A program made the position numbers and the translations under genes. From Cenococcum geophilum (lineage: Eukaryota): a stretch of DNA of 64,000 bases. The stretch spans positions 9,548,001-9,612,000 of the forward strand of contig CP158635.1 in assembly GCA_050273025.1 (NCBI GenBank). The letters are read 5' to 3'. The notes under the pieces were generated by a model. That model had not been told where the DNA came from, searched no databases, and saw nothing but the letters and a program-made list of their open reading frames with translations. Shown here in pieces: positions 8,751 to 61,600 of the stretch. Position 1 is the first letter of the stretch, and every line of letters begins with the position of its first letter.

Positions 8751-10192
8751 TTAACGGCTAAAGGAAGAGGTAGAGGAGTTAACCACCTTTTATATAAGGT
8801 AAGGATTATATAAGTACCGCATCATACCCTTTAAACTGTATAACGGCTCTATATCCTTCTAAAGGTTTATTAATAACGTCCTTTTCGACTACCTAGACGA
8901 CTTCTATACAGCCTATATAGATAATATCCTAATCTACTTAGACGACCCGCTAAAGCACAAAGTCTACATTAAAAAGGTCCTATAGAGGCTTTAAGAGGTA
9001 GGCCTATAAGCGGATATTAAGAAGAGTAAGTTTGACGTTACCAAAATAAAGTTTCTAGGTTTTATTATTAGAACTAATAGGATTGCTATAGATACTAATA
9101 AGCTAGCTATAATTAGAGATTAGGAGCCCCCTACCTTTGTAAAAGGGGTATAATCCTTTCTAGAATTCTGCAACTTCTACTAGGCCTTCTTAAAGGATTA
9201 CGGCTAAGTTGTATAACCGCTTAGTAAGCTTACAAGGAAGGGAGTATAGCACTTACTATGAGAGGAAGAGCTTAAAGTCTTTAAATGGGTTAAGGCTTTT
9301 ATACTATTAGGTAGTGTAATTAAACACTACTTACTATTCCGAGACACCCGCGTAGAGACTAATATAAGTAATGGAGTAGTAGCTAGGGTACTAAACTAGC
9401 TATAAGACAATAGGACCTAGAAGCTAGTAGCCTTCTTTTTAAAGATAATGTCCCCTAAGAAGATGTGGTATAAGATCTATAATAAAGAAATACTAGTAGT
9501 AATAAGAGGCCTATAGGAATGGCGAGGTCGCCTTATCGGCCTCTAGTGTATACTTTTTATGGTAGTTATAGATTATTAAGCCCTTAACTATTTTATAACT
9601 AAAAGGCTACTAAACCTATAGTAAGCCCGCTGGGTAGATCTACTAGCTAATTTCTATATATAGATTATATATAGGCCAGGTAGGGCAAATATAGTTGCTA
9701 ATACTCTATTATAAAAGTAAGAGGACCTAAAGACATAGAAAGAGAAGGATGTAGCTATACGCACCATATACTTAATTAACCCCGCCCTTATAATCGCTAC
9801 ACTAAAGACAACCTTAAGGGACCCTTTGTAGTAAATCGCAAATAGGAACCGTATAAGCTGGTTAATTAGATCCTCCAGGCTAATTAAACTAGCGAGTCGC
9901 TAGTAGGGCTATGTTAGCTAGCTAAGTAAGACTAGAAGGGCTGGAAGCTCTAAGAAGGACTACTTACCTGATTTAGCAAGCTAATAGTCTCTAATACTAA
10001 CTGCCTCCGTACCTACCTTATTGCGGAGGTACACTCCTATTAAATAACTGCTTACCTAAGTATAAGAAAGACCAAGAGGCTTATAGCAGACTAATACTAT
10101 TAGCTAGGATTAGCTTTAGATTATAATATATATATAAGTAATTGTAGGACCTACAGGAGGACTTATATACCTTATAATAAAACTTTAGGCCT

Positions 10193-26153: not shown

Positions 26154-26885
26154 TAGACAGTTAAATAGCATTACTAGAAAGGATTAATATCCTTTACCCT
26201 TAATTAGTAAAATCTAAGACAAAATAGGTAATATGTAAATCTTTATAAAAATAGATCTAAGATAGGTATACTATTAGATTAGGATTAAGAAAGGCAATAA
26301 ATAAAAGGCAGCCTTTAGGTTAAAGGAAGGACTATATAAACCATTAGTTATATAATTTAGGCTTATAAACATACTAGTAATATTCTAAAAGCGAATTAAT
26401 AGTATATTAGGAGAACACCTTAATAAATCTTTATAATTACCTTAAAGAAACAGCTAAACTAGTATAAGAAAGAATAAAAAGGTACTATAATACTAGGAGG
26501 TCTAAGGGACCAGATCTTAAGAAGGGAGATAAAGTATAGCTACTATATAAAAATTTTAAGAGTTAACAACTAAGTAAGAAATTAGACCACGTTAGACTAG
26601 GACCATTTATTATTAAAGTAAAAATCTTAGAAGTTATATATAGACTTAACTTATTAAAGAAAATAAAGATCTACCCTATATAGCATATTATAATATTAGA
26701 ACTAGCATACAGAAATATTAAACCACTAGTCTATAAGGCAGATATATATAGAGGATAAGAAGAAGACAAATAGGAAGTTTTAAAGATTATTAGTTATAAG
26801 GACATTAATAACAAAATATAGTATAAGGTTAAGTAAATAGGCTATAATAAGACTACCTAGGGGTCACTAAATAATCTAAAGAACG

Positions 26886-27537
26886 CTATAGGAAAGGTAT
26901 AGGAGTATTAGAAGAGGATAGGTTAAGTAGTATTAATAAAAAAGGATTACTAAAGAATAAGTCACCTAAGGGGGACCCAAGAGGAGCAGCTTCTATGGTA
27001 TTTAGAGTTATTTCCCTCTCCGTTAAAAAAGAATCCGTTTTTTTATTGCTAAGTTTTTATAAACCTTATTCCACTAGTTTCTACTCCTTAGAATATACCT
27101 TTTTACAAACCTTTTTAAGACAAAGTAGCTGGGCAGATGCCGCAATCTAAGTATTTAAGGCCTTTTGCTTAGCGTTATAAGAACGCTTAAGTTTAGCAAG
27201 AGCCTATACTAGGTTACTATTAAGTTTCGCAGCGGTAGATTAAACACAAGACCCTATAATAAATTACTTAGGGAACTTAAAGACTATTAAGAGTAATAGG
27301 ACACGTATACTTAGCATTAGAAGAAGAGCGAACATTATAGGATAATTAAATATTCGCTTTAATGCACTCTAAATAGGAAGAGGGTTGCTAAGATAAAGGA
27401 CTTGCTAATATAATATAAACTAGCCCCTTTTTCACACAACAAGAATATAGAGATGGTATTATTTTACTAAGAGATAGTATTGCAGTAATAGTTTAAGCGC
27501 GACGTTGTGCTTACAAGGAAGAATATACTTTAGGTAT
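26886..27537 (-). pseudogene. Antisense accessory gene of Gypsy copy 1: Zn(II)2Cys6-like domain + coiled coil, putative 55-nt intron at 27254-27308 (RIP-inactivated)
   Basis: The minus frame reads YSCCVKKGLVYIILASPLS*QPSSYLECIKANI*LSY. With TAT read as TGT this gives C-x2-C-x6-C-x13-C-x2-C-x8-C at 27337-27447. It is conserved in frame in copy 2. Confidence 0.7.
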
Positions 27538-29260
27538 AATAAGTAAAAATATTAACTAAGTTAATTAGACAGATATTATACCTTTAGTAAACAACTTAGA
27601 GATATTAAAAATCTTTAAGGACAAAGATAAAGAGGAGGGAAATAGTATTATAGACGCTTTAAGTAAAGGGCTATAACTACTTAGAGAGGAGTTAGAGGGA
27701 GCTAGTTAGTTAATTAAGGCATAGTCTAAAATGGAACCTATAAAACTATATAATAAAGAATAGTAAGCGAGTTATATAATGTTGTACGCAGTATACGCAA
27801 GATACGGATTATATATATATATAATATGTATAATACGTACTTTATATATAAGAAGAGTTTCTTAGGAGTACGGATATATATTTAAGGACTTATAGTCCCT
27901 ACCTAGATAGTTCCTTTCCTTATAGTAAATCTTAGAATACAATTAGAGTTAATCTATTAGGTAACTACTCTACTAGTTATTATTAGTCGTTGTTAACTTA
28001 TTCAATATCTATATATCTAGCCTATTAATAAGTCCACCATAGTTCCTGCTATAAGGCTTCGTTATAGATAGCTTATAGGGCCCTATAAGATTCTAAGCAT
28101 AAAGGACACTTATATATTATTAACCTACCCCTAAATATAAAGATGTTAAACGTCTTCTACACTAATTAACTATAAAAGGACCTAGATAACCCCTAACTAG
28201 GTTAAAATAGGGAGTTAAAGGAGCTAATCCTAATTAATAGCAAATCAGAGTACGAAATTAATAAGATCCTTACTAGTAGAACCTCCTACGGAAGGCTATA
28301 GTATAAGGTTAGCTAGGTAGACTATAACCTAAACGACATCTGGTATAATACAGACGGCTTTATTAGCGTTCCCTATAAGATTAAGGCGTTCTATAATAAA
28401 AGACCCCATAACGCCAGGCCGTCTACGCGGCTATTATAATGGCTAGAGGTGTATTATAAAGGTGTAGATCTAGAGCCTACGGAGGATAATAATAAAGTAG
28501 AGAAGGATAGAAAGACAAGACGGATAAGGAGAGCCTAACTATAAGGATTAAGGGCAATCCTCCCTACTTAAAGGGGGGTAATATAACGGTTTGTCTATAT
28601 AACTACTAGGAGGCGTTGTTAGTTAAGGAATAACGTTGCTCCAACTACTAAATATGTATATACTTGTCTACTATATCCTTTCCTCAAACTCATTACCTTA
28701 GTCTATTTATAATATAGCCTCTAGAGCCCTTAACGCCTTACCCTATTAATTTGTGTATTTGTTAGCCGTAACAAATAGAAGAATTTGTTAACTTGCTTAA
28801 TAAGCCATTTTTTTTAACTCTTTAGTTAAAGCCTTTATTAAAAAAAAGGAATAAAGAATTAATTAAAAGAAAAGTTGTAATAGCTTACCCTATAAGTTTA
28901 AGTCTTTGCCTAAAAACTTTATTATTACTATTATTTAATTAGGCCACTAGATATTAGAAATTAACCTACTAAATAACTCTGCTATCTTTTTTATAAACTT
29001 TATAAATATAAATTAAAGCTTTAACTAATAGGCCAATAATATTGATAAGTTATTAAGTAATTAGGATAACAAAATAGGTAATAAACTAATAGCCTTTTTA
29101 TTCACCTTTCCTTTATACTTTATACCTTAAAATCCTTACTTAAACAATTACAATACAGTTAATTTTATAACTTTACTAACCAACTATATTTAGTATACTG
29201 GCTTACCAAATCATAAAATGTATATATTTACTACCCCAATTAATAAAAATGAGCCTTATA

Positions 29261-38205: not shown

Positions 38206-41200
38206 TATTACGGGACACCCCCGTAACACCTTGCACACGTCCACCTATTTCTACTAACTCAGCAATTAGAGACCAACCGCGAAATAGCAATCTAACGGCA
38301 ATTTACGGCATTCTGCCATATTCTACCAAGTTCTACCAAATTCTGCCAAGTTCTGCTAGGACTATAACCTAAACTCTATTCTGCCTATATACGTATTAAC
38401 TAAGCAACTAAGTTAACGATATATGCCCTTTCTTCCTGTTTTCATACCTTCTTTCCTTACGCAACGTCTTGACTTTATTACGCAGTTTATATATATAGCT
38501 TAATAATACCTACTTCGCTATATATTATTACCGCTTGTGCTTACTCTGTAACACTACATTATGTTAAAAACTTACACTACCCTCTAAAAATACAGAACGA
38601 CCCTAAAGCCCCCGTAACGGCCGACGCTATTATAGCTGCACTCTAAGAATAATTAGCAGGTATATAGAAGTCCTTTACGGACGCCCTTATATAGCATTAA
38701 GCCACTTTAACTTATTAGTAAGCCGAATAAGAAGCATAATAATAATAATTAATTAAAGCACTTTAAGAAGAAGTCCGTATCCTTAAGATGCCTATATTAA
38801 GGCCTTAAGACCAAACACCATCTCTAAAGATAAACACGCGGAACGCAAGCCCCGAATTAATAGTAGTTACTCACCCTATAGAGCCAACTACTACACTAAA
38901 ACGATCTAAGAAACTACTAGACCCCCTAGTATTTACCAGTAAATGACAAGAGCTTTAGTTATTCTTAAGCCGGCTTAAGAATAAGCTAACCAGTAATGCT
39001 AACCGCTACCTAACTAAAGCTAACTAACTCTATTACGCCCTAAGTTAACTAAAAGGAAACGCAGCTAACCTTATTAAACCTCTCTAACCAAACTTAGTAT
39101 AAAGCCTAGTTATACTTCTTAAAGCTATATATAGTAACCCAAACCACCAAGCCACCGCTTAAAGAAAGATAAACCAAATAACTTAAGAAAAGAAAAGTTT
39201 CCTAGTATACTTCTCCGAATTTAACCGCTACGTAAAGGAAATAGGCTGAAATAACTCCACACTAATTAACAGCCTTATTAAATCCTTAAGCCCTAAACTA
39301 AAAACCTCCCTAATAGGCGTAGACCTCCTAGAAACTCTTAACGCCTATATAAACGTTATTAACAAACGGTATAATAATATACTACGCCTTACACTAAAGC
39401 CCGTTTATTGGTATAATATAATAACCCTACAAATATTTACTAAGTTATCGTCTTAACCTAAGCACCCTGACGCCATAGATATTAACACTAAGACCCTAGG
39501 ATACGCCCCATTAGGGTCCTCTAAATAAGAACAACGCATTAAGCTAGGCCTTTGCTTTAAATATAGAAGTAGCTCCCACCTCTTAAACCACTACTCCGTC
39601 CCTATACCCCGAAACGATTTATAAATGGCTAGCACTGGCAGCCGTCCACCATATTAATCTTCTAGTTACCGTCCCTAATCTTTATCTAGTTCCACCCCTA
39701 CGTCTAGTAAGCACTATTTATAAGGACAAAGCTACAGCTAACGTCCTATAAGAACCCTACCCTAATTACCTCTAAAAGGAAGGTCCTAGAGCTAAGTCGC
39801 TTTCTAAGACGGCTCTGCTATAGGATCTCGTTAAATGCATTTAACGTCACAAACTCCAATTCTTGGGACCGTAGCATAACCATTAACTGCTGTCTTTGGT
39901 AGAATAGTTAATAGGCTAACGCTTAAATCCTAATCAATATAGGAGCTAGCGGCATAGGATTTATTAATAAGATCTTTATGTAAAATAATAATTTTACCCT
40001 AACCCCCCCCCAACCGGCATATTAACGTATTTAGATTTAATAGTAAACGCACTATCTTAGGCCGTATTACCTACGTAGTATTCCTAAGACTCCAATACCT
40101 AAACCATAAAGAATTAATTAAACTTTTCGTTACCACCCTTGGTTACTTGGTGATCCTAAAATAACCCTAGATAAAGCTATATAAGGTAACTATTAATTAG
40201 GACAACCTTAAGCTTCTATTTACTGCCTCCCATTATAAGTAGAAGTGCCTTATAACTCGCCACTTAAACCCAGAACTAAAATCTAAAAAATCCACCAGGA
40301 TCCACCAGTTTAAAATTTCCATAACTGTCCACCCTATACCTAAGAAATCCACCAGATTCCACCAACCTAGGAATTCCACTGAATTCCACCAACGTAAGAT
40401 CTCCACTAATACTTACTCCACGCCTAAAAATTCCACCGACATCTACTAAGGACCCAAAAACTCCACTAAATTTTATAAGTTATTACTAAGCACTACACCG
40501 CCCCAAGCCAAGTAAAAGCTTAAGCTCTATACACGGAAATACTAGAAGGACTAGTATTCCACTATAAAAAGGATTCTTAAAGAACCTGAACCTAAATCTA
40601 ATACTAACTCCGTACCTGATACTAAACCTAAACCTAAATAAGAAACTATAGACAACCTAAGTGAGCTCGGCACCCTAGATATCCGTATAATTGGAGCTAC
40701 CCCGCTAGCGCAACTTGCTAAGAAACCCGAGCATATAATCTTCGCTATTATAATGGCCGATATTAAGAAGGCCTTAGCACTAAAGAAGCACACTAACCCT
40801 ACTATAAAGGTACTAATAGAGTATTATTATCGCCTAGATGTATTCTTACGAAAGGAAGCCAATAAGCTACTAGAACACTAACTATACGACCATAAGATTA
40901 TACTTAAAGAAGGAAAGCAGCCTAGATTTGGACCTGTATACGGGATATTCTAAAATAAACTCTAAGTACTATAAAAGTATTTAGATAAGAACCTAAGTAA
41001 AGGATTTATTAAAGCAAGCTTGTTGCCTATAGCCGTATTAGTAATCTTCGTTAAGAAACCTAGCGGCGGTCTACGCTTCTATATAGACTACTAAGCTCTT
41101 AACGCTGTTACCGTTAAGAACTAATATCCAATCCCGTTAATATAAGAGACGCTAAACTAATTAAGTAAGGCTCATTACTATACAAAGCTCGATATTATCT

Positions 41201-44162
41201 CTATATTTAACCGTCTCTGTATTATAAAAGGGGACGAATAGCTTACTGCATTTTATACCCAATATAGACTATTTAAGTACTTAGTAATACCCTTCAGCCT
41301 CGCAAACGCTCTAAGCTCGTTTTAACATTATATAAATAACACCCTACGCCCTTACCTAGACATCTTCTATACTACTTATATTGACGACATCCTAATATAC
41401 AGTAATAACCTGACCGAATATTAAAAACACGTTAACCTTATCCTATAAGCCCTATATAGAGCTAGTCTATAATTAGATGTAGATAAATGCAAGTTTTATA
41501 AAACGGAAGTCCTATACCTTAAACTCCTTATTTCTATAAATGGTATATAAATGGACCTAAAGAAAGTCAAAGCAATTGTAAACTAGTAAGAACCCAAGAA
41601 CGTTAAGGACGTAAGAGCCTTTATAGGATTTACTAATTTCTACTAACGGTTTATTAATAACTTCTCCGCCCTAGTTTTACCCCTTATAGCTCTAACCTAA
41701 AAGGATAAAGTCTTTATCTTTAATAAGGAATACAAGAAGGCCTTTACCTATCTAAAGGTTATGTTTACTACTACGCCCATACTCTAATACTTTAACCTAA
41801 ACTGAATAAGTATTATAGAAGCCGACTTATCTAACTACGTCACTAGAGGCATCCTATCTCAGTATAACGAGGATAGAGTATTACACCCTATAGCATACTT
41901 CTTAAAACGACTAAGCCTAGCCGAATATAACTATAAGATCTATAATAAGGAATTATTAGCTATTATTAGGTGTTTTAAATAATAGCGACCTAAACTAGAA
42001 GGCGCTAGATTTCCAATTAAGGTCCTTAGCGACTATAAAAACCTATAGTACTTCACAACCACGAAACAGCTAAGTCATCGTTAGGCCCGCTAGTTAGAAT
42101 ATCTATCTTGTTTCCAATTCTCGATTACGTACTACCTAGGCGTCTAAGGTTAGAAGCCTAATGCCCTAACCCAACGCTTGCAAGACGCGCCAGCCCTAGA
42201 AGAAGCGCGCTCTTACTAAAATCAGACCCTACTTTACCCTAAACTATTTAACCCTCCTACTAAAGATCTTACGGTATACGTCCTTAAAATAACTAATCGA
42301 TTGATTAAACAGATTATAGTTAACAAATACCTAAATAACGAGTTTATCCAAAAGACGCTTAAGCTAATATAAGATGGCATTAGATGCTTTAAAAAGATTT
42401 CTTTAAGTAAATACAAAGCCCGCAGAAATCGCTTATATTACTAGAACCATCTAGTTATCCCTAATTACGATAAGCTTAAGCTTAAACTCCTTAAACACGT
42501 ACACGATCTACCTATCGCCGGCCACCCGGGCCAAGGAAAGACCCTAGAACTACTCTAACGGGAGTATTATTGGCCGAATATATATAATATAACACGAAGG
42601 TACGTCTCTAGCTGCTATACCTGCCGACGAGCTAAAGCCTCGCATAAGACGTATAACGGTCTTTTAAAGCCGCTGCCCGTTCTAGACCGAAGATAGAAGG
42701 ATATCTTAATTAACTTTATTGTTAACCTTCCTAAGAGTAGAGGCTACACAAATATTATAGTAGTTATAGACCGACTATCTAAAATAAAACACTTAATCGC
42801 CTGCCCTAATATATTAACGCCTACCGTTGCCCAACTATTCTTAGATTACGTATAGAAACTCTATAGACTCCCTAAAACGATTATCTCCAATAAAGGCAGC
42901 TAGTTTGTCTTGGTATTCTAAAAGGAACTAACTACTTAACTCCGCATTAAAGCACTGTTATTTACCGCGTATTACCTAAAAACGGATAGCTAAATAGAAC
43001 GCGTAAATGCTATAATGGAATAGTATATTCGGATATATACGTTATATTTATAGGATAACTAGATCAACTGGCTTGTATTTACCAAGTTTACTATAAATAA
43101 TTCCGTCTTGGAAACTACAAAAGTCTCTCCGTTCCTAGCCAATTACGGCTAGTACTCACAAATAGGTTTTAAACCCTTTAGTAATGTCCCTTACCCTACT
43201 TATTACGCCTTATAAGTTGTAGAAGTAAATAAATTCGTAGAGAAGATAGAGGAACTATAATAGTTCCTTACTAATGAGATAATATAGGCTTAATCTGTCT
43301 ATAAAGCCGCAGCGAATAAAAAACGAACCCTAGTACCGGCCTACTAAATTAGTAATTTTGTCTAGCTAGATATAAGAAATCTAAACACGAAATGACCTAC
43401 TAAGAAACTTAATTGGAAGAACGCTGGCCCTTATAAGGTTGAAAAGGTTATCTCTCCTTATACCTACTAACTAAAGCTCCCTAATACGGTTAAAATCCAC
43501 CCCATATTCTATACGTTAGTCCTCCGCCCTACTACCCCTATATTAGACGCCCTGCCTAGATAGATATAAGACCCTCCCCTACCAGTTAAAGTAGATAGTG
43601 AGAATAAGTACTTTATTAAAAGAATTAACGATATTAAGTATGATAAACGGAAACGCTAATATATATATCTTACAAAATGGAGAGGCTTTATTAAGTCCTT
43701 ATGGGAACCCGTTAACTCTATAGGACTTATATAAGCCGCAGAAGACTTTTACGAACTTTATCTAGAACTACTACAGCCCTATCTCGCAGAAGCTCGAGTT
43801 TAAAGGGGGGGTACTGTTACGGGATACCCCCGTAACACCTTGCACACGTCTACCTATTTCTATTAACTTAGCAATTAGAGACTAACCGCGAAATGGCAAT
43901 CTAACGGCAATCTACGGCATTTTGCCATATTCTGCCAAGTTCTACTAAATTCTGCCAAGTTCTGCCAGGACTATAACCTGAACCCTATTCTGCCTATGTA
44001 CGTATTAACTAAGCAACCAAGTCAACGATATATGCCCTTTCTTCCCGTTTTCCTACCTTCTTTCCTTACGCAACGTCTTGACTTTATTACGCAGTTTATG
44101 TACATAGCTTAATAATACCTACTTCGCTATATATTATCACCGCTTATGCTTACTCCGTGACA
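38206..44162 (+). mobile_element. Complete Gypsy chromovirus (5957 bp) inserted in the old Copia 3' LTR
   Basis: LTRs of 348 bp at 38206-38553 and 43815-44162, TSD ATAAC. Zn knuckle at about 39550, RT YIDD at about 41377, integrase HHCC at about 42500-42625, chromodomain at about 43600-43760, PPT aaagggggggta. Confidence 0.95.
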
Positions 44163-44521: not shown

Positions 44522-47500
44522 TGTTACGGACGCTTTAAGTACAATGTTACGACTACTAGGAGAGGAGTCGGAAGAAGCTAGTTAGTTAATATAAGTACGG
44601 TCTAGGATAGAACCAGTAGAGCTATATAATGAGAAATAGTAGCTAAGGTTATATAATGTGATCTATATAATCTATATAATCTATAAGGTCCGCGATAGAG
44701 TAAATAGAGTAGACAGAGTAGACGGAGTAAGGACTTCTATAAAAGTACGGTTGTGTATTTAAGGACCCTTAGTCCCTACCTAGATAGTTCCTTTCTTTGT
44801 AATAATTCTTAGAATACAATTAGAGTTAATCTATTAGGCAACCACTCCACTAGTTATTATTACGTTATTAACTTCCTACTTTACCTATATACCTAGCCTA
44901 ATAACAAATCCACCGTAGTTCCTACTATAAGGTTCCGTTATATAATTACTACTATAGTTACGGTAATAGAAGTCAAATAATATACTACTAAAAGCAGTTA
45001 TAACGACGCTATTAATGGTAGTAATAACCTTAGGGTTAGTTAATAATACTAGTATAGTAGATACTAACTCGTAACTAGTTACAGTTAAATAGTTATAGGC
45101 AATAGTTAATTAGTTAATAGATAATAATAAGGTATTTAAATAAAGGGTTAATGGAATAGGAGTAGCTAAGGTTAAGTTACCTTTAATTAAACGATTTTTA
45201 GGAGAGAGATTAAAGCTTAAAGGATTCCTTACGTAAATATACTTTAAAGTTACACAGAAAGGAGTAAAGTTAGCGATATTTATGGATTAGGTAGTATACG
45301 TAGGATTATTCCTAACGGGAAGGGTGCTTAAATAGTTTAAACCCTACCTTACGGAAATATAAGATAATAGTATAACAACTACTAATTAGGAAGTATAATA
45401 TATATTTTTAAGCTAGACTAAATTTACGGAATAATTAATATAAATATTTAGAGACCCAGAAGTAATAACTATAGTAAAAAGGAAGCTTTAGGACCTAATA
45501 TAGCAAACCTTAGCAATTAAGTATATAACGCAGTTTTAGATATTAGCTATATAGGTTAAATAGAATAATAAGGCGCTTATAGTATAGTATAAATAGGGAC
45601 TTAAAGTAAAAGTCTAAAATATAATTATTCTAATAGAAGATACGGACACCCTTAAGGAATTAATAGATTAAGTAATTAAAATTAATAATAGGATCTTCCA
45701 AAGGGAATAGGCTAAAAAAGGCTAGAATAGAGTTTTATAGTTGTATAAAGCGCAAAGCACGTAATATTTAAAGTTAAATTAAAAACTATGGTATAGCGTA
45801 GAGCTAATAGACCTAAGTAGTACTAAAGAAACCTATAAGAGATGGGGAAAGTAACTATAGAAACTTAGAAGTTTAGAATTAAGTAATTATAGGACTAAGA
45901 AGCATAGGCTAAACTAAGAATCTTAGTAGTAGAAGATATTTAAGCGGACTCTATAGTAAAAGTAATAGTTTAAAGACGGAGCATATATAAATTATAGAAA
46001 ATAGGGTTATTTTGCCAGAGACTATAGAAGTGGTTAGAGTTACTATATAGTAAAGGGAACTAGACTAATAGTATATAACACATATATATAGAGGGATAAT
46101 AGTGTACTACAAGGAACAAAAAAATATTTAATTAGAAGTTTTACGTTTTGTTATAATAACACATACTAAATTTATAAAGACGCTAAGTACGGTGTAAGCT
46201 ATTAGCTATAAGAGCTAGAGTTAAAAGGACTTAAAGGAACTAGAGAGTTAAATAAAAAATAAAAATAACTCTATAAGCTAGATTAAGATATTATAGTAAT
46301 ATACGGATAAAGATTAGTAGTAATAATAATAGAGTTAGAGTACTTATTAATTAACAGCGATAAGGTAGTAGAGGGAACTAACTAAGACCGCTATAGAGTA
46401 AGGTTTAGTAACGGGTATTATAACACTATTAGATACGGCATCCATCGCTTTATAAGATGGAAGAAGAAATATTTAAAGATAATTAAGTAAGTAGACGACT
46501 GCTAGTACTAGCTTACTACTTAATAAAGGTAAAAGGCCAAAGGCTTAAGATTCTTAAGATAAGATAAGAAATAACTAAGATTCTTAAGACGAGATAAGGT
46601 ACGCTTAAGGACCTATAATAGACGATAACCGATAGAGCAGAGTAATAGCTTAGTTTAGTAATATATAAATAAGCTTAGGACGAAGTTTCCTAAAGGTATA
46701 AGACTTTTAAGATAAGATAAGTAAGATTTAAGACTCTTAAGATAAGATAAAAATACTAGCAAAGCCTAGTTGAACTAAGGCTAGAGTATAGCTTAAGAAA
46801 AAATTGAGCTTAGGATTAAAGAATCTAAGGGACTAAGTATTTGGAGTATAAATAAGAATACCTATAAGTAAGAAGTAAGGAGCTTTATTATAAATTAGAG
46901 AATCTATAATATAAATAGCAGTTAGATTAGGAGACAGATATATAAACTTAAAGGACTTATTAGGGGAATATAGTGTTTAGCCTAAAGATTAAGAAGTTAA
47001 TACTACGATTAAGAAGTAAGAAAACTTTAAGGATCTAGTTATAAGACATAAATACTAAGAAACTATAGATAAGTTTAGAGTAAGAATCTTTATATAGTAA
47101 AAACAAGGACTAGATATAAAAGCTAGTATACTAGATTATATATAAGATAGAGCACTAGTATTAAGAATTACTAATAGGCTAAGAGTAGGCATACTAAGAG
47201 TTAAGTGGCTTACTAAACTAGAAAATAAAGAGGATCTAGGGATTTTAACTAGGTTTAAAGAACGATATATAAAGGGCTGTTATAACGTAGTAATAAGAAG
47301 ATACTTCCTTACGGATAGACCGTATATACTTTAATAGCTGTACTAAAGGTAGTATAGGCAAAGATATAATAATAAGTAGGAAGATTTCTATATATAGTTA
47401 GATAAGAAAGTTATCTAGAACTACCTAATTATGGAAAAAGCAATAAACCATATTAAGGGAGCCTTAATTATAATATTAAAAGATTTAGAGAAACGATTAG

Positions 47501-50500
47501 AGGATTAAAAAAGTAAAAGACGTATCTTAATACCTGTAAATAAAGCCGCAATATTTAGATTAATATAATAAAGGTTTAAACTTAAGGACGAGGATAAGCT
47601 AAGAGTTAACCTAGGTTACCTAGCATATTATACCCTATTATAGATAGCTTATATAAATAATATGTATAATATATATAGAGCACCAAAGGATAAATATTAA
47701 AAATACTTTATAAGGATGTATTAGGCGCCAGATAAGCAATAGTATAGAAATACTAAGTATATATATAGCTAGCATCTAGTAAAAGTTTAGGAGTTAGAAG
47801 ACTTAATACTTTAACTAGAAAAATTCCTTATAGAAGAATGCTTAAACGGATAATAGTAGTGGAAATGCCTAAAGAATATATATCTATAGTATATTAAGGA
47901 CAAAAAGCGAATAAAGTATTAGTTAAAGAATAAGTTAAGTATATCAGGATCTAACAGCTAACAGTTAGAAAAAGTAGAGGCCTATAGGATTAAAGGAAGC
48001 CAGTAGTAGAGCCTTAGACCCTTAAAGGAATTTAAGGACGATACCTAAATTTATAAGTTAAATAGCAAGATTAACAGTTTAAAGTACTAGTAGATAGTGG
48101 AGTAATAAGGAACCATATCTTACTAGCAGCAATTAAAAGGATAGGGCTACCACATAGACAAAAAGAGCACCCTTATCTATTAGTTATAATTTTAGGAGAT
48201 CTAATAGCCTATAAAGGAGGCATTATTAACTTTAAAACAGGACCTATTTAGATAACCATTAAAGGAAGATAAGTTAAGATGTCTTTTAATATATTACTAT
48301 TAGGGAATAATAAGGCAGTATTAGGAATGCCTTAGTTACAGGAATACAATCTAAAGATTAATTAGATTACAGGGTAGGTTAATATTAAAGATACTTAACG
48401 CCGCAAGACGCAATAATAAGCCAAGATAGTATAGTACTAAGTTGGAGCAATATACAAGGAAACCGAGAAAGGGTTAAGTTATATACTAAGGAGATACTAT
48501 AAATACGGCAAGAAACTATAGTCACTAGAAAGTAAAAAGCTATTAAAATACGCAGCATAGGACTATAAGATAGAATTAGAACTAGAAATAAGTCTAAGGT
48601 TCTTTCTAATCTACAAGCTTACTAAAGAAGAAGAGAGAGCACTAAAAGAGTTTATTTAGGAAAACCTATGAAAGGGATATATTAGACTATTATAGTCATT
48701 AGTAGGATATCTAGTACTATTTATACTAAAGAAAAACGAAAAACTTAGGCTATATATTAACTATAGATAGTTAAATAGCATTACTAGAAAGGATAGATAT
48801 CCTTTACCCTTAATTAGCGAGATTTAGGATAGGATTAGTAATGCGTAAATCTTTACAAAGATAAATCTAAGATAGGCGTACCATTAGATTAGGATTAAGG
48901 AAGGCGACGAATAAAAGGCAGCCTTTAGGTTAAAGGAAGGATTATATAAGCTATTAGTTATATAATTTAGGCTTATAAACGCACTAGCAACGTTTTAGAA
49001 ACGTATTAATAATATATTAAGAAAACACTTGGATAAATTTGTTATAGTATACCTTAACGACATTATTATCTACTTAATAAGTGAAGAAGAGCACGGAGAA
49101 CACGTTAAATGGGTCTTAAAGAGACTATAGGAAGAACAGATGCTAGTAGTAATTAAGAAATACAAGTTCTTTACTAAGGAGACTAATTTTATTAGATTTA
49201 TTATTAAACTAGGCCAACTTAGTATAGATCTAAAGAAGATTAAGGCTATAGTAAATTAGTAAGAACTAGAGAACGTTATATAGTTAAGATTGTTCCTAAA
49301 GTTTTATAATTACTATAAAAGGTTTATAGCTTAATAGTTAAAGGATATTAAGCTGTTTATAAGGTTAATAAAGAAAGAAGAACCTTAGGTATAGGGAGAA
49401 GAATAGAGGAAACTATTTAAGGAGGTTAAGGAGTTGTTTACTTAAGACCTAGTCCTTAAAATCTACCAACCGAAACTAGAAATAGTGGTTAAAACGGATA
49501 TATTAGACTTTATACTAGGGGCGTGCTTTTTATAGAAATATAAGAATAGATAGCACCTAGTAGTATACTATAGTTGGAAGATAATACTACTAGAACTAAA
49601 CTATAACATCTATAATAAGGAGTTATTAGGTATAGTTACAGCACTTTAGAAATAAAGAGTATTCTTATAAGGTATAGAGAAACTATTTATAGTTAAGATG
49701 GATTATAAGAACCTAACGGGGTTCCTAATAACAAAAGAACTTAATTAGAGATAGGTTAGATAGGCAGAGATACTTATAGAATACCATTTCGAGATTTAGT
49801 ATACTAAGGGTATAAATAATGCACGAGCAGATGCCTTAAGTAGAAAGGCTAAACTATAAAATAATGAAAAGCCATTAGGGGCTTTACTGCGAAAAGATAT
49901 AGATGGTTTAATTAGGTATAATTATCTAAGAATTGCAGTAATAAGAGAAATTAGTTAGACCTATAAATTACTAGAAAGTGACTAGTTATAAAAGATCTAA
50001 GACGTATAGGCAGAGGATTTAAACTTAGAGTAGTATAAAAATTAAGAAGTAATATACGTACTAAGGGGCATTATAAAGGAGTTTGTTAAGTTATTCTATA
50101 AGGGACTAACTTAAGGATATAATAGAGCTATAGGCTTAGTATTAAGACTCTAAGAGGAGTATATTATTAATAAAATCTAGGGACTAGCAAGATAAGTTAT
50201 AAAGAAATATCTAAATTACTAAAGAAATAAACTAGCACAATATAAGCTATATAGAGGACTATAACTTATTAAAATACTAGAAAGACTATGGGAGGTTATA
50301 TTATAGGACTTTATTATAAAGTTGCTAAAGTTAAGAGATCCTATTACTAGACAAGATTATAATATAATTTTAGTAATAGTAGATATGGTAATAAAGTGGG
50401 GATACTTTATAGTATGTATAGAAGAAATCTTAGCGGAAGATATTACTAGAATTTATATTAAAGAAGTGTTTATAAGACATAGGGAATTAAGTAAAATTAT

Positions 50501-52511
50501 ATTAAATAGAGATTTAAGATTTGTAGTAGTATTCTAAGAGGTATTCTTAGCGGAATAAGGAGTTTAAGCAGTAACTTCTACCGTATATTATCCGCAGATA
50601 GACGGTTAAATGGAAATATTAAATTAGACGCTAGAATAATATCTAAGGCATTATATTAATTATATACAGAATAATTGGGTATTACTATTACTAGTTATAT
50701 AGTTTATATATAATATAATACCTTAAAAAGAAATGGGTATATTACTATTTAAGGCGAACTACGGATACGAGCTAAGAATATCATTATCACTATATTAGGT
50801 AAAGAAAATAAGTAGTATAGCTAAGTAAAGAATAGAAATACTAATAAATCTTTATATATACCTTATAGAAACAGCTAAGGTAGTATAGTAAAGAATAAAA
50901 AAGTATTATAATACTAAGAGATCTAAGGGACCAGATCTTAAGGAGGGAGATAAAGTATGGCTACTATATAAAAATTTTAAAAGTTAACAACTAAGCAAGA
51001 AGTTAAACTACGTTAGGCTAAGACCTTTTAAAATTATATAAAGGATTTCACCGGTTATATTTAAGTTAAACCTATTAGCTAAAATAAAGATCTACCCTAT
51101 ATAGTATATCGCCATGCTAGAACTAGTATATAGGAATATTAAGTTACTAGTTTATAAGGTAGACACGTATAAAGGATAAAAAAAAGATAAATAGTAAGTT
51201 TTAAAGATCGTTAACTATAAGGATATTAACGATAAAATATAGTATAAGGTAAAGTGGATAGGCTATAATAAGACTACCTAGAAACTACTAGAAAATTAAA
51301 AAAAAAATGCTATAGGAAAGGTATAGGAGTATTAAAAGGAAAAAGGTTAGGCAATATTAATAAAGAAGGATTACTAAAGAATAAACCACCTAAGGGGGAC
51401 TTAAGAGGAGCACCTGCCGAGGTACTTAAAGATATTTCCTTCTCTATTAGAAGAGAATCCGTTTTTTTATTACTAAGTTCCTATAAACCTTATTCTATAA
51501 GTTTCTACTTCTTAAAACACACCTTTTTATAAACCTTCTTAAGACGGATTAACTAAGTAGACGCAGTAAGCTAAGAATTAAGAGCGCGTTGCTAAGTATT
51601 AGTAGCCTCCTTTTTAGTGTTACGGGAATAATAAAGTTTAGTAAGAGTAATTAAGAGCTTATCGTCGAGCTTTATAGCAGCAAATTAAACCTAAAACCCT
51701 ATAATAAATTACTTAGGAAACTTAAAGATTATTAAAAGTAATAGAACGTGTATACTTAGTGTTAGAAATAGAGCGAATATTATAGGACAATTAAATATTT
51801 GCTTTAGTGCACTCTAAATAGGAAGAGGGTTGCTAAGATAAAGGGCTTGCTAGCGTAATATAAACTAACCCCTTTTTTGCATAACGAGAATACGGAGATA
51901 GTATTATCTTACCTAAAGATAATATCGCAGTAATGGTATGAGACCGACGAGCTATAGAAGAAGAAGAAGGAGCCTTAGGTATAATAAGTAAAGATATTAA
52001 CTAAATTAATTAGACGGATATTATACCTCTAGTAAACAACCTAGAGATACTAGGTATCTTTAAGGACGAAGATAAAAAGGAGGGAGATAGTATTATAGAC
52101 GCTTTAAGTACAATATTATAACTACTAGGAGAGGAGTTAGAAGAAGCTAATTAGTTAATATAAGCACGGTCTAGAATAGAACTAGTAGAGCTATATAATA
52201 AGGAATAGTAGCTAAGGTTATATAATGTAATCTATATAATCTATATAATTTATAAGGTCCGCAATAAAGTAGATAGAGTAAATAGAGTAGACGGAGTAAG
52301 GACTTCTATAGGAGTACAGTTGTATATTTAAGGACCCTTAGTCCCTACCTAGATAGTTCCTTTCTTTATAGTAATTCTTAGAATACAATTAGAGTTAATC
52401 TATTAGGCAACTACTCCACTAGTTATTATTACGTTGTTAACTTCCTGCTTTACCTATATACCTAGCCTAATAACGAATCCACCGTAGTTGCTGCTATAAG
52501 GTTCCGTTACA
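44522..52511 (+). mobile_element. Complete Gypsy element with 421-bp LTRs, copy 2 (7990 bp)
   Basis: LTRs at 44522-44942 and 52091-52511, TSD CTTTG. It has gag, a long extension, PR (LVDSG ~48087), RT (YLND = YLDD ~49050), RH, INT and a chromodomain. Confidence 0.95.
51310..51982 (-). pseudogene. Antisense accessory gene of Gypsy copy 2: Zn(II)2Cys6-like domain + coiled coil, putative 55-nt intron at 51699-51753 (RIP-inactivated)
   Basis: The minus frame reads (I=M)PKAPSSSSIARRSHTITAILSLGKIILSPYSRYAKKGLVYITLASPLS*QPSSYLECTKANI*LSYNIRS, with the motif at 51782-51892. Exon 2 is collinear with copy 1 plus a 7-codon insertion. Confidence 0.7.
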
Positions 52512-55671: not shown

Positions 55672-58600
55672 TGTCACGGAACCCTACCGCAGGGGCCTCC
55701 ATAGGAGAGCCCCGTGCTCTCGCGTACACCTCGCGTATAGCTTATGTCAGCTACGCGTAGGTATATCACCTCCTTACGCCCTTGACCCTTACGATCGATC
55801 GCGCAACGTCTTGTAGACTCCTTGAATATATACGTCTTGTAGCCACTGCCCCGTCCCGTAACATTACGTTGCGCCTTTTTACCACTGATACCTAGCCTAT
55901 AACTAATTCTACATCTCTATAATACTATAGGCGCTGCTAGAAGCAGCGTGCCTATAAGTTACCTTACTTTATACTTCTAAGGAACCCATAATAGTAAGAC
56001 GATATTCCTTACTAGCTATTATATTAAACCCAAAGAACAATCTAATACCTATACTTAACCTACAACGCCAATTAATCCCAGAAGAATTTAATTTATTAGC
56101 CCTAGCCTTAACCCTTAAGGAGATAGATACCAATAATGTCTTATTTTTTATTAACTATATAACTACGGATAAGCAAGCGGAAGGGCTACTACCTATTAAA
56201 ATTAAAATACAAGACGCCGAGACGTTTATAAAAATAGTAGCATAAGAACCTAATAAATACTACCGCCTTCTACAGAACTACTACCTAAAGCTTATATAAG
56301 CCGAGATGCGTACTACCTAAGATCGCGATATTATCTAAGACCTATAAGCTTATAAGGCGCTCGCCAACAATACGCGTTAAGAAACCAAAGATAACCTCTG
56401 TGTGTCTAAACGCGACGTCTAATAGTTAAAGAAGGCTAAGATTGTACTTATTGCTACGGTTACTAAAAGAGAAGGCATAATTAAATACCTATAATCTCAG
56501 CTTAACAAGCACATTTATAATAACACTAGACACCTCTCTACTGCATATAACGCCACTTAAGTCTTTACGCCCCTGGCAACTTTACCTACTTAACGCTTAA
56601 TGGAGAGTTAGCGCTAAGCAGCCTTACCTAATAGAAACCCCTACTAAAGCGATGATAAAAGCTATAACGACCGAACCTAAGCTGCCACCGTAGGGTCTAA
56701 TATATGTTACCCTAATCCCCTAGTTTTCTAGGGAGACCGCAAAGAATATAGCTACTAGAAAATACAAATCTACGAGAAACTAACTTAGAGCGCCTGCCTT
56801 TTTCCTACGGAAGATACTAAGATTAGCTATATTATCGGGTAAATAAAGGGTATACTATTTAATAGACTCTTCGCCTAATAGGAGACTAATAGCCCCCGGA
56901 AGTAGCAGTCCTACTAAGAAGTCCTTAATAATCTTAACCTAATATACCGCGACTATAACCTACTAGCCACCAACCAAGCTAAACTACGTGCCCTAAAGAT
57001 AAGCCCTACTAAATTATTTAACGAGTTTTATATTAAATTCCAGGAATATACCGGAGCCCTTACCTAAGACGATACTAAAGACTAGGAAGATCTCCTTAAA
57101 AAAGTCACTTATCGCCTTAGTTACGCAGCCGCTAGCTATAACTATAATAATATTTATAATATAGTAGCAGCCATATAGAAGATTAAACGACGACTAAATT
57201 AGATCGCTACTATAAACCCCCGCCTAAAGATCTCCCTATAGAAGCCCTCCGGACCTACTAAACTACTAACGCCTACTACCCTAAGCAACACTACTAGTCC
57301 TAATATTAACCTTTCTATACTAACCTTCCCGTAAAAGCTACTAGATAGAGAACGTGAGCTACTCTAAAAGCTAAAGCGTTGCTATAGATGTTATTAAGAA
57401 GGCTGTTATAGCTATAGCCTAAACTGCCTAATAGCTAGGTTTAGTAGCCGCCGCCTAATACTTAACCTAGTACCTTAAATACTAAATACGTCGCTATGTG
57501 CCACTACCGTATAAGACAAAGACGTAGTAATAGTGGTAGAGTCGGATACGGAAACGGAAAACGCCAAGTCCTAGCCCTAAGTTGTAGGTTAGGACGCCCT
57601 AATAATAAGGGGATCTATATATCGGCCTGCTTAATAGATAACTTAGTAAAGATAAATGGACGGAAATAGATAGTTTTACCCATAATAGGAACTACTGCTA
57701 AAAAATAATATAAAAGCCGTTTTATGATTAATTGCGAAGCTACTAATAAATTTATAGATACCTAATTTGTGCGCACTTATAACCTACCTACCTTACCCCT
57801 TACTAAAGCCCGCGCCCTATAACTCGCTAACAGTAGTTATACCGCATAGAAGATTACCTATATAGTACAACTCTATCTAGATATAAATAGGCACCAGGAA
57901 GAACTCTGGGCCTATATTATACTACTTGCTAACTACCCTATTATCCTTAGAATAAACTAGCTTAAATAACACAACCTTACTATTAACTAGAAAAAGAGAG
58001 AAGTAACCTTTAACTCTAAATACTGTAGAGAGACCTGCCTAGGATATAGCCTAGCCGCCTTTATCTACTCCCTAGGATACTAACCTAAGGAACCCCTTAT
58101 TACCCTACCTACGACCAACTACTACTACGTAAGTGCCGCGGCCTTTTACCGTATAGCACGTAGGAAAGGCTAAACCGTTACCGCAGCCTTTTAATTACGA
58201 CTATATAAGCTTAATAAAGAACAGGACCACGTCCTTTATAGTAATAGAATAGATATAGTTAACCTTTTAGAAAACGATGCCCCCGCAAAACTCTACGGAC
58301 TTTTACCTTTAGACTTTAAGAAGTTTATAAAGCTTAAAAAAGGACTTACCAACAAGGAACTCCGCAAGCTCCTCCCTAAAAGGTACTATAACTTTATTAA
58401 CGTGTACTTATAAAAGAGCGTAGATATACTCCCCCTATATTAACCTAATAATTATACCATTAATATTAAATAAGGAAAAACGCCACCCTATAAGAGACCC
58501 TACCCAATATTAAAAGACAAACTTTTAGTTGTTAAAAAGTATATTAACAAACACCTTAATAAAGGGTTTATTCGCCCTAGCATATCCCTAGCAGCCGCCC

Positions 58601-61600
58601 CTATCCTCCTTACTAAGAAGCTAGGAGGAGGTATTTAATTCTGCGTTAACTATAGAGGACTTAACGCTATCACGATTAAGAACTAATACCCCATACCGCT
58701 TATACGTGAGACTCTTAAGCGGCTTAGCTAAGCCAAAATCTATACTAAGCTCAATATCATCGCCGCCTTTAACCGCCTCTGAATACGAGAAGGTGATAAA
58801 TAGAAAACTGCATTCGTATTACGCTTTGGCCAATTTAAATATACTATTATACCCTTTAGTGTATATAACGGCCCAAGTAGCTTCTAAAGCTATATTAATA
58901 ACGCCTTATAGGACTACCTTAACGACTTCTGCTCTGCGTACCTGGACGATATACTTATTTATAGCAATAACCCTTTTAAGCATACTAAGCACGTTTAAAA
59001 GGTCCTATAGCGCCTTAGGGACGTAGGACTTTATATTAATTTAAAGAAGTGCGAATTCTTAGTTATAGAAGTAAAATACCTTAGACTAATCGTTACTACT
59101 AAGGGTGTCCGTATGGACCCTAAGAAGGTACGCATAATTACCGAATGGCAAACCCCTAACTGTATTAAAGACGTATAAGCTTTCCTCAGTTTTACCAACT
59201 TCTATTAAAAATTTATATATAACTTCTTAGGTGTTATAGCACTACTTATAGCAATAATGCAAACGAAGGGTCTTTCTGTAAAAGGAAGAAAAATATATTT
59301 ACATTTTATCTGGACGCTTAAATGCAAGAAGGCGTTCTAAGACCTTAAAGATGCTTTTACTAAAGCACCTATCCTAGCTCACTTTATACTAGGATAATAA
59401 CTCTATCTTAAAACTAACTCCTTAGACCACGTTAACGCAGGCGTCCTCTCCTAAATAGGTGACGACGGTCTCCTCTACCTAGTCGCATTCTATTTATTTA
59501 AGCTTATACTATAAGAATATAACTACAAGATCTATAATAAGGAACTTCTCGCAATTATATAAGCGTTTAAGGAATTCTAACTAGAACTCTCTTTAGCAGA
59601 ACCTAACTAGCTAACTAAAGTCCTTATAGATTATCGCAACCTTAAGTACTTTATAACTATAAAACAGCTAAACTAACGCTAAGCACGCTGGAACGAGTTC
59701 CTCTCTGGTTTTAACTTCAAAATTATATACAGGCCAGAAGTATAAGGTACTAAGCCTAATAGCCTAACACGCCGCTTACAAGACCTTCCTTAGTCTAAAG
59801 ATAACCCCTATAACCAGTTCCAACAATAAACAATCCTAAAAGTACGGAATTTAGCCTTAGGTATACTACCTATAATAGAGCTAACTGTACCTTAGCTCCA
59901 CACTATAGAACTAGAATTACCTCCCGAAATTAACGAGCTTATTACTACGGCATATAATACCTCTATTAACCTATTACTGTATTAACTTATTGCCGCAAAG
60001 ACCGCCGGCGCCCGTACGCTGCTAACTAAACTCTAAAGCTTAGGCCAGATTAATATAGCAGCCTTAGAAGTAAAAGAGAACAGGCTCTATTATAGAGGCC
60101 GTCTATTTATCCCCAACTTAGAAAATCTACAATAGCAACTAATCTAAATGGCCTACGACCTCCGATTAAGCGGCTACCTAGGTAGAGGAAAAACCTATAA
60201 GCTTCTTAGCCAATACTACTTCTAGCCTAAAATAATAGACTTAGTTGAACACTTTATAGGCGCCTGCTACAGTTATAAGCGCGCTAAGGCCTTTAATATA
60301 AAGTACTAAGGACTACTACACCCTCTACCAGTACCTATACGACGATGGGCAGATATCGCTATAGATTTCGTTATTAACCTACCACCCTATAAGCGACATG
60401 GCCGTACCTATAAGAACATCCTTATAATAATATACCGACTTATAAAAGAGCGCCACTACGTCCCAACTGAAGGCGTAGCCATTAGCGACGTTACTAACGC
60501 CTTCCTTCGCGAAATTTACCGATTATATGGGTTACCTAACTTAATTACGTCTAACCGAGGCATATAGTTCGGCTCTGATGTATAGAGACAAATCTGCTAA
60601 CGCCTTAGCATCTCTATTAAGATATCTATATCCTTTTACTATAAAACTGCTAGGTAACCAGAAAACGCTAATGCTAGCATAAAAGCGTACCTACGACAGG
60701 TAGTCGCCTATAGTTAAGATAACTAGGTAAATTACCTCCTACTAGGTAAATTCGCAGCGAATAACTACGTCTTAACTACTATAGGACTTACCCTATTCTT
60801 CGCGAACAAGGGATATTACCCCCAATCCGGCATAGAACTACCAGAACCTATTAATAAGAAACTGCCATATAGAAAACGCCTTAAGATACTACTTGCCGAC
60901 CAGTATACAAACCGTATAAAAAATCTACTCGACTACTATAAGGGAGAAATGGCCTGGGCTTAAGTAAAGTAGGTTTACTTTACCGACCGTTATAGAACGC
61001 CACTACCGGAGATGCGTATTAGCGACTAGGTATAGCTAGATATACACAATATCTCTACGCAGAGGCCTATAAAGTTACTTAATTATAAAAACCTTAGCCC
61101 CTACCTAATTAAACGAGTTATTAATAGGGGAGCCGCATATAAGCTAGAGCTCCCACCTGCCCTAGCTACCCGCGGGATATGGCCTATATTTTACCTATAG
61201 CTACTATACCTTTACTAGCCTAACCTCTTACCAGGGCAGATATAGCCCGAACCCCTATTAGTACTAATCTAAGATAAGAACAAAGATAAGAACTATAAGG
61301 AGTGGACCGTTAAACAAATTATTAACTTTAAATACTTTGGCAAAGGCAGAGGACGATGGCTCTACTACAGAGCTATATATATAGGATTCGACATAGATTA
61401 GCCAGAATAGCAACTATAGGAAGACTTTGAAAATGCAAAGGATCTAATTAGCGACTTTCACCACGCGAACCTATAGAAACTGGGCCTAAGTAGAGATTTT
61501 ATACCTAATCCTCTATAGGAGCCCTTATAGAGTTAAACCGTTGTATATTACCACGTAGGGGTAAATTACCGTTAGATTGCCGTTAGATTGCGGTAAAGTA

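Follow-up and report, generated by a model that had tools for sequence, protein, structure and literature searches.

A stretch of 64,000 nucleotides from Cenococcum geophilum (assembly GCA_050273025.1, contig CP158635.1, positions 9,548,001 to 9,612,000), referred to here as the window, carries two remnants of one spliced gene on the minus strand of two long terminal repeat (LTR) retrotransposons of the same family, element 1 and element 2. Both stretches are read as copies, killed by repeat-induced point mutation (RIP), of a genuine accessory gene in an ascomycete Ty3/Gypsy chromovirus lineage, and a probability of about 0.8 is given to this reading with the proposed regulator mechanism included. 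It is highly probable that a real, element-borne and spliced gene lies dead at these two sites. The part of the reading that would make its product a zinc-dependent DNA-binding regulator is tentative, somewhat under even odds. Three results are new here: in intact relatives the antisense gene is embedded in a pol tail that is itself open, selection was tested by means of the frame shift at the intron, and a link to DUF3716 was seen.

The copies in element 2 (copy 2) and element 1 (copy 1) were identified by the same landmarks, and the coordinates of all features are collected in Table 1. An initial annotation of this DNA had claimed a minus-strand frame conserved in both copies, and its starts, cysteine module, frame-shifting segment and restored Trp codon hold letter for letter. 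Copy 2 starts with ATA-CCT-AAG at 51982 (ATA 51982-51980) and copy 1 with ATA-CCT-AAA at 27537, and the module is spaced C-x2-C-x6-C-x13-C-x2-C-x8-C in both. A segment of 55 nt with AT at its start and AG at its end shifts the frame by one base in both copies, and its excision creates a Trp codon, T/GG, across the joint. The spliced reading then runs to 205 codons in copy 2 and 198 codons in copy 1, close to the total of about 200 first put forward, with 10 internal stops in each. Exon 2 of copy 2 encodes a long helix and a C-terminal tail, and its last ~10 codons face the end of the chromodomain of pol on the other strand, as mapped from the intact relative L003 described below. The two copies are identical at 661 of 826 aligned bases; transitions make up 128 of the 165 differences, and an indel of 21 nt between the copies is in frame.

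Profiles built from relatives outside the window recovered both copies, and neither profile had a third match in the window. The exon 1 profile (A4), which combined four un-RIPed or little-RIPed rows with four lightly RIPed copies carrying X at stops, matched copy 2 with an E-value of 1.4e-29 and copy 1 with 2.1e-24, while the exon 2 profile (A3) matched them with 5.8e-29 and 5e-36, respectively. Both window copies are dead: they have no start codon, four to five of six Cys are lost, each carries ten stops, and the 5' splice site is destroyed.

Broken frames were translated with X at stops, and natural un-RIPed relatives were used as the reference for what had been lost. The search with exon 1 of the window returned eight related open reading frames (ORFs); these have likewise undergone RIP, and their six module positions hold C or Y. 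Exon 2 returned 26 proteins at E <= 0.001, several of which are un-RIPed, and the proteins P0040 (152 aa) and P0041 (239 aa, including the C-terminus) were reached via these exon matches. In metagenome contigs, 289 related stretches were found, of which the best 80 were used as loci, with composition known for 25 of them. Among these 25, only L001, L002 and L003 are un-RIPed (GC 0.45-0.48, TA/AT 0.71-0.88); the other 22 are RIPed, with TA/AT of 1.40-1.85. L003 is a complete chromovirus, with a gag that carries a CCHC knuckle and a pol with protease, reverse transcriptase, RNase H, integrase, SH3 and chromodomain. Its antisense gene encodes 197 aa, and an in-frame stop stands 9 codons upstream of the ATG at 258. 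L001 belongs to a more distant lineage, with 62% identity in exon 1 and a proportion of synonymous differences (pS) of ~0.6-0.7; it has kept the gene and the intron, and this copy has frameshifts in pol and in exon 2.

Comparison with these relatives identifies the damage in the window. Between copy 2 and L003, 238 C>T/G>A changes were counted against 28 reverse transitions and 58 transversions, which is a RIP signature; it follows that the ATA (from ATG), the TAT codons (from TGY) and the splice-site AT (from GT) of the window are RIP products, as are most of its stops (from CAR and TGG). The start codon proposed by the initial annotation, a RIPed ATG, is borne out by the un-RIPed relatives (L001-L003, P0040 and P0041), which have ATG at the position of the window ATA. 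Cys5 is intact in both copies and Cys2 in copy 1, as had been reported, and the remaining module positions are indeed former Cys codons: every one of the five un-RIPed sequences with a full exon 1 (L001, L002, L003, P0040 and P0041) has all six Cys, and across 95 exon 1 copies the six positions hold exclusively C or Y, with the L or P seen at Cys1 being a one-residue alignment offset.

The 55-nt segment, which had been proposed as an intron, is bounded by GT..AG in L001-L003 and lies at the same place there as in the window copies. Of 85 copies, 16 begin the segment with GT and 69 with AT, and 82 close it with AG and 3 with AA. Introns carry a branch site with the consensus YTRAY, and a YTRAY-like site stands 12-15 nt before the AG in L003. 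Four database proteins (P0013, P0039, P0040 and P0041, from contigs of 0.9-1.4 kb) are continuous over the junction (..AEW/S..), and four others (P0029, P0037, P0042 and P0043) read into the intron. The continuity of the first four may come from spliced RNA, with gene models as the alternative source. The genomic RNA of the element carries the complement of this intron and is not spliced there, and by this established logic an antisense intron survives retrotransposition.

Two further observations concern the intron and its joint. In P0044 the exon joint reads ..AEC-TFH-VRS.., one residue longer than ..AEW-SRV.. and with three or four different residues, which points to a copy whose intron is shorter or is spliced otherwise. 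The intron itself (L003 499-553; window 51699-51753 and 27254-27308) has a transversion diversity of 0.041-0.051, compared with 0.14-0.15 at antisense third positions; it is about as conserved as non-synonymous sites, and L003 shares a 20-nt core without a difference with copy 1 of the window. This conservation may be due to splicing signals, to a cis element or to the pol frame that overlaps the intron.

Selection was assigned to a strand by codon position. In exon 1 the third codon positions of both strands coincide, so that selection there is not assignable to one strand, while after the 55-nt shift the antisense third position of exon 2 falls on the sense second position. Differences between L002 and L003, counted by coordinate modulo 3 (0, 1, 2), were 8, 3 and 27 in exon 1, with an antisense ratio of non-synonymous to synonymous change (dN/dS) of 0.06. 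In exon 2 they were 39, 14 and 15, with a dN/dS of 0.21 for the antisense frame and 1.48 for the sense frame, and in the chromodomain 2, 3 and 20, with a sense dN/dS of 0.02. Against L001, the sense dN/dS over exon 2 was 0.83-0.87.

Transversions are not produced by RIP, and their diversity was computed over 85 copies. By the same classes it was 0.070, 0.031 and 0.140 in exon 1 (p 2e-7) and 0.152, 0.073 and 0.060 in exon 2 (p 1e-5; p = 1 for the sense third position), and it was flat by class in the intron. In both the L002/L003 comparison and the 85-copy transversions, the most variable codon position thus tracks the antisense frame and moves across the intron, and the change in periodicity is located exactly at the 55-nt GT..AG segment. 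The exon indels of L002, L003 and the window copies, of 12, 15 and 21 nt, are all in frame. The purifying selection that had been predicted for the antisense frame is borne out: by these codon-position comparisons, the spliced frame is shown to be maintained as a protein.

The same tests bear on the opposite strand. The initial annotation had placed the gene between chromodomain and 3' LTR, but this region is no spacer: in the intact relatives the gene lies inside a pol frame that runs into the LTR. In L002 and L003 this frame passes the chromodomain and the entire antisense gene without a stop and reaches its end only within the LTR, giving a pol tail of ~280 codons past the chromodomain (L003 29-906, L002 3784-4718; equivalent to ~51310-52200 on the plus strand of the window). 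When the antisense gene was shuffled synonymously, the sense frame was free of stops in 0.1-1% of 5000 shuffles. Compared in this way, the pol tail seems to have been kept open beyond chance, with its amino acids not conserved.

The antisense gene is always element-borne. All 100 of 100 exon 2 copies, loci and window together, have the end of the pol chromodomain facing their 3' end from the other strand, as would be seen if homologs always lay antisense at the end of pol. The chromodomain overlaps the query by 40-49 nt in most of these copies, and the Pfam chromodomain match of L003 ends ~30 nt inside the antisense gene. At the other end, the antisense start codon is separated from the LTR boundary by ~100 nt in L003 and by 108 nt in the window. 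These 108 nt include, for copy 2, the polypurine tract, which is purine-rich, near-invariant across L001-L003 and the window, and has the lowest transversion diversity; the frames of P0041 and P0043 extend upstream over its complement. Pairs of copies that differ by more transversions in the gene tend to do so in the pol flank too (Spearman 0.35, 3570 pairs). The gene thus runs opposite to gag-pol, at the 3' end of pol and short of the boundary to the 3' LTR, and it occurs in most family copies (289 stretches) with conservation at the protein level, as antisense ORFs of this class do.

RNA contigs X2, X5 and X8 and the X1 reads had no read, contig piece or joint on 51502-52055. For X1, raw RNA reads covering about 12 in 100 of the run were used, and the silence of copy 2 in them fits a dead, silenced copy. 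A pile of X1 reads up to 13 deep was seen at 46166-46242; the reads are 90-95% alike, only 77 nt fit, and the sequence is unlike on both sides. The pile is probably a transcript of another locus that shares a short similar piece.

The predicted product of ~197-205 aa has a basic N-terminus and a short helix, followed by the six-Cys module, by one helix of ~100 residues and by a tail that is unstructured but conserved at its very end. The module consists of two C-x2-C-xn-C half-sites. AlphaFold2, run on P0041 with 16 aligned sequences, gave a single helix at residues 98-199 with a predicted local distance difference test score (pLDDT) of 94-99, a short helix at each C-x2-C and a disordered tail. 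The long helix is rich in Ala, Glu, Arg and Lys, and its most zipper-like stretch is also its most conserved part, with a K-V-R-S-K-E that is invariant in alignment A2. Judged from its residue pattern, it may be a single stable helix and not a coiled coil. One piece of the helix region, P0027, is labelled 'vacuolar-type H+-ATPase subunit I/STV1' by a source, and this name is most likely a misnaming driven by coiled-coil similarity.

Two Pfam families came close to the module. DUF3716 (PF12511) matched five of the eight A4 members and P0043, from profile position 3 or 4 to position 59 of 59, and no match was found in P0040, P0041 or P0042. The match covers nearly the whole profile in L003, L002, L005 and P0043, and in L003 it scores 20.1 bits compared with 14.9 bits for Zn_clus (PF00172). 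Zn_clus matched weakly in six of the eight A4 members, with a best E-value of 0.002, and the match mostly places residues 34-53, the first Cys triad, on profile positions 17-37, which are the second half of the profile. In the ESM Atlas, the nearest clusters are Ascomycota proteins of ~200 aa, and the nearest of all (score 0.92; 212 of 256 features) bears the automatic name 'Zn(2)-C6 fungal-type domain-containing protein' and has no common Pfam family. With the module alone, the first family-bearing cluster has DUF3716 in 28% of its members (score 0.76); both Atlas matches are leads only. On these matches the module is a Cys6 domain that probably binds zinc; it appears closest to DUF3716, its two half-sites resemble Zn2Cys6, and DNA binding by it is plausible.

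Structure searches with the low-confidence model of the Cys module gave no match in the PDB at E <= 0.001 with Foldseek, and a best Z of 2.7 with VIA-align over 48,161 chains. Neither listed a Gal4-type chain, which is uninformative given the quality of the model.

In the proposed mechanism, an antisense transcript would start in or beside the 3' LTR, that of element 2 being the likely site of the antisense promoter as judged from the layout. The transcript would be spliced and translated into a zinc- and nucleic-acid-binding protein, and this protein would act for the element, for example by regulating its transcription or chromatin state. The antisense promoter in or near the 3' LTR and the autoregulatory or anti-silencing role suggested by the initial annotation are putative, as is dimerisation of the product. 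A wider form of this proposal, argued in part by analogy, is rather unlikely in its full extent. It holds that in many ascomycete chromoviruses a spliced gene would lie wholly within, and antisense to, a pol tail that selection keeps open, with ~650 nt read on both strands, and that a DUF3716-type DNA-binding protein made from the 3' LTR would control the element's own promoter or chromatin as a counterpart of the HTLV-1 (human T-cell leukaemia virus type 1) regulator, the same domain having been recruited by REP9 transposons and by telomere-binding proteins of the host. It agrees with the selection on the protein, with the open sense frame and with the DUF3716 lead.

Several results weigh against the main reading. 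The function of the product is wholly inferred, and an RNA run of the same species label, X1, had no read on 51225-52055. The continuity of P0013, P0039, P0040 and P0041 over the junction could be explained by gene models as well as by spliced RNA. The pLDDT of the Cys module was low: 45-68 as part of the whole protein, and on average 59.9 when the module was modelled by itself. The hydrophobic enrichment at heptad positions a and d was equalled by 88 of 2000 shuffles when counted as LIVMFA and by 332 of 2000 as LIVM, and the middle third of the helix is nearly without a hydrophobic core. Family scores stayed below the Pfam cut-offs, with 13.4-18.6 bits for Zn_clus (cut-off 21) and 13.4-20.1 bits for DUF3716 (cut-off 22). 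The exon 1 profile searched against PDB sequences found no Gal4-type chain; it matched C2H2 fingers with E-values of 0.014-1.4 and Ski with 0.66, and these matches are at chance level.

Next to a DNA-binding regulator, a real gene may encode a protein- or RNA-binding helper of the retrotransposition cycle, with Gag, integrase, chromatin or the genomic RNA as its target, or the main effector may be the antisense RNA, with the protein secondary to it; taken together, this alternative is unlikely while being the strongest of those weighed. Antisense ORFs between pol and the 3' LTR have been described as having an unknown function, maybe relevant to retrotransposition, in the part of that source available (PMC7264820). 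An Ala/Glu/Arg/Lys-rich helix with weak heptads, and a Cys module that falls below every DNA-binding family threshold, would suit such a role, and by the layout an antisense transcript would be the complement of the genomic RNA at its 3' end. However, purifying selection at the protein level means that the protein matters and not the RNA alone, and the DUF3716 lead, as far as the excerpted reports go, points towards DNA binding (PMC4650311, PMC10776026).

A true Gal4-type Zn(II)2Cys6 factor with a dimerising coiled coil, acting as a sequence-specific transcription factor, is an improbable identity for the product. The resemblance to GAL4-type clusters had been claimed by the initial annotation, and the six Cys in two half-sites stand, while membership of the family is not borne out by the Pfam scores. 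Gal4-type clusters are spaced C-x2-C-x6-C-x5-12-C-x2-C-x6-8-C, and the spacing found here is near this pattern; the long helix that follows the module, the short helix modelled at each C-x2-C, the weak Zn_clus matches and the name of the nearest ESM Atlas cluster all point the same way. Yet the central loop of 13 residues is one residue beyond that range in all un-RIPed members, and a single Lys stands between Cys2 and Cys3 in most members. All Zn_clus scores are under the cut-off, most of these matches are out of register, and DUF3716 scores higher in L003 with its whole profile covered. The PDB sequence search, without a Gal4-type chain, and the Atlas cluster, without a common Pfam family, count against this identity as well.

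That the backwards ORF and its intron are chance by-products of a conserved sense pol tail or of conserved cis nucleotides would agree with the open pol frame of L002 and L003, with the rarity of stop-free shuffles and with the coinciding third positions of exon 1, but is contradicted by the L002/L003 codon-position test and the 85-copy transversion test, in which exon 2 varies at the antisense third position, by the high sense dN/dS there, by the periodicity shift exactly at the GT..AG segment, by the invariant Cys of un-RIPed copies and by database proteins that join the exons at T/GG, and is therefore scarcely credible.

The whole 64-kb window is AT-rich fungal DNA of the RIP type (GC 0.26-0.42, TA/AT 1.44-1.96) and is composed of LTR retrotransposons. 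The LTR pair of element 2 is 91% identical over 438 aligned bases, and its pol is 59% identical to that of L003 over 1152 aligned columns (tblastn). From the LTRs and pol of element 2 and the domain order of the intact relative L003, the host element is classified as a Ty3/Gypsy chromovirus. Element 1 belongs to the same family as element 2 but is rearranged.

Table 1. Positions of the antisense gene copies and of their host elements in the window, with the intact gene of L003 in the coordinates of that locus.
Feature	Position	Strand	Remarks
Antisense gene, copy 2	51982-51310	-	two exons; element 2
Copy 2, exon 1	51754..51982	-	76 codons and first base of Trp codon; 2 premature stops
Copy 2, intron (55 nt)	51699..51753	-	5' GT RIPed to AT, 3' AG kept; maps to L003 499-553
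Copy 2, exon 2	51310..51698	-	GG of Trp codon, 128 codons, stop TAG 51312-51310; 8 premature stops
Copy 2, six-Cys module (37 codons)	51782..51892	-	now Y,Y,Y,Y,C,Y
Antisense gene, copy 1	26886..27537	-	exon 1 27537-27309, intron 27308-27254, exon 2 27253-26886; element 1
Copy 1, six-Cys module	27447-27337	-	now Y,C,Y,Y,C,Y
Element 2, 5' LTR	44522..44940	+	contigs break at 44522; LTR-LTR alignment
Element 2, pol	47919..51374	+	RIP-degraded yet colinear; Pfam on frame with X at stops; tblastn
Element 2, pol reverse transcriptase	48723-49194	+	Pfam
Element 2, pol RNase H	49470-49785	+	Pfam
Element 2, pol Tf2-type SH3 (SH3_Tf2-1)	50946-51123	+	Pfam
Element 2, chromodomain-like stretch	~51183-51330	+	
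Element 2, polypurine tract	52060..52090	+	directly 5' of 3' LTR
Element 2, 3' LTR	52091..52509	+	begins TA, a RIPed TG
Element 1, 5' LTR	~16847-17270		
Element 1, 3' LTR	27646..28069	+	428 aligned bases, 89% identical to 5' LTR
L003 antisense gene	ATG 258; exon 1 258-498; intron 499-553; exon 2 554-903; stop 904-906		197 aa

With L003 pol as the tblastn query, pol-like pieces of element 1 (16847-28069) were found at 20058-20918, 26155-26427 and 26414-26950; residues ~373 to ~972 of pol are absent, and ~5 kb of other DNA separates the first two pieces. Further, more distant Gypsy pol remnants lie at 8656-9708, 10650-13499, 16004-16585, 40858-43722 and 58348-61164, with 24-36% identity to L003 pol. 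These other families of Gypsy elements showed neither a match to the antisense-gene profiles nor a six-position C/Y pattern with at least three Cys. In the element ending at 43722, the distance from pol to the LTR is only ~90 nt.

The window copies themselves are dead remnants and add nothing functional. The family they represent is widespread: one contig collection yielded 289 stretches of it, and the ESM Atlas has several clusters from Ascomycota. It was selected as a protein and is missing from standard annotation. In its overlap with the pol tail, which is itself open, two reading frames share the same DNA on opposite strands, a clean example from nature. To our knowledge, extra genes in LTR retrotransposons are rare, and we know of none in fungi with a known function; in the literature searched, no description of a Cys-cluster antisense gene in a fungal LTR element was found. 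If the product is indeed a DNA-binding regulator, fungal retrotransposons would carry their own transcription or chromatin factor, which would bear on how they escape or tune silencing. In Botrytis, the activity of retrotransposons has been tied to small-RNA effectors, according to the portion of the report at hand (PMC8365987).

The layout of an antisense gene at the pol/3' LTR end is already in print as brtn of Boty, an extra gene of Boty-like elements in Botrytis and Sclerotinia (Zhao et al. 2011, Virology 417:248; PMC8365987, PMC7264820, PMC4227169, PMC5987419; all available in part). Like the gene described here, brtn is carried by a fungal Ty3/Gypsy chromovirus, runs antisense to gag-pol at the pol/3' LTR end and is, by these partial accounts, not in standard genome annotation. 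A Monilinia transcript is reported to match both a truncated Pol and BRTN (in PMC8365987, PMC7264820, PMC4227169 or PMC5987419), which is consistent with a close or overlapping layout. In contrast, the available passages on brtn mention no six-Cys module, no long helix, no intron as found here and no overlap with an open pol tail. The likeness to brtn rests on position and orientation and not on the sequence of BRTN, and the name BRTN is absent from the 18 cluster members listed for ten of the family proteins.

The plant elements Grande1, RIRE2, Retand and PvRetro13 carry antisense ORFs of the aORF-3R type (PMC7264820, seen in excerpt). As far as that text goes, these share with the fungal gene the position, the orientation, the presence in most family copies, a conservation like that of other element proteins and an unknown function; they differ in belonging to plant elements, no Cys module is mentioned for them, and no sequence relation is expected.

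For DUF3716 proteins of Ascomycota, the excerpted literature offers two settings. REP9-1 and REP9-2 are genes of an IS3EU-type DNA transposon in Zymoseptoria tritici (PMC8232023), and PSC58 of F. graminearum is a reported ortholog of N. crassa NCU05718 (PMC10776026), which directly binds double-stranded TTAGGG and in which no DNA-binding domain had been annotated (PMC4650311). The Cys module described here aligns to positions 3-59 of the 59 positions of DUF3716, and REP9 genes are transposon-borne as well. However, its scores are under the cut-off, REP9 is a class II element, and in the text available the REP9 genes are not described as antisense to a polymerase gene.

With Gal4-type Zn(II)2Cys6 proteins, the predicted product shares six Cys in two half-sites and a long helix after them, while it differs in scores below the cut-off, a match out of register, a central loop of greater length and a stretch from Cys2 to Cys3 that is poor in basic residues. 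HBZ of HTLV-1 is an antisense bZIP protein whose transcript starts from the 3' LTR and is in part spliced. It belongs to an animal retrovirus, is an unrelated protein and has a bZIP without a Cys module, whereas in the fungal element the promoter and the function are putative. By analogy only, both would be retroelement genes that run backwards from the 3' LTR end, are partly spliced and encode a helix-based nuclear regulator.

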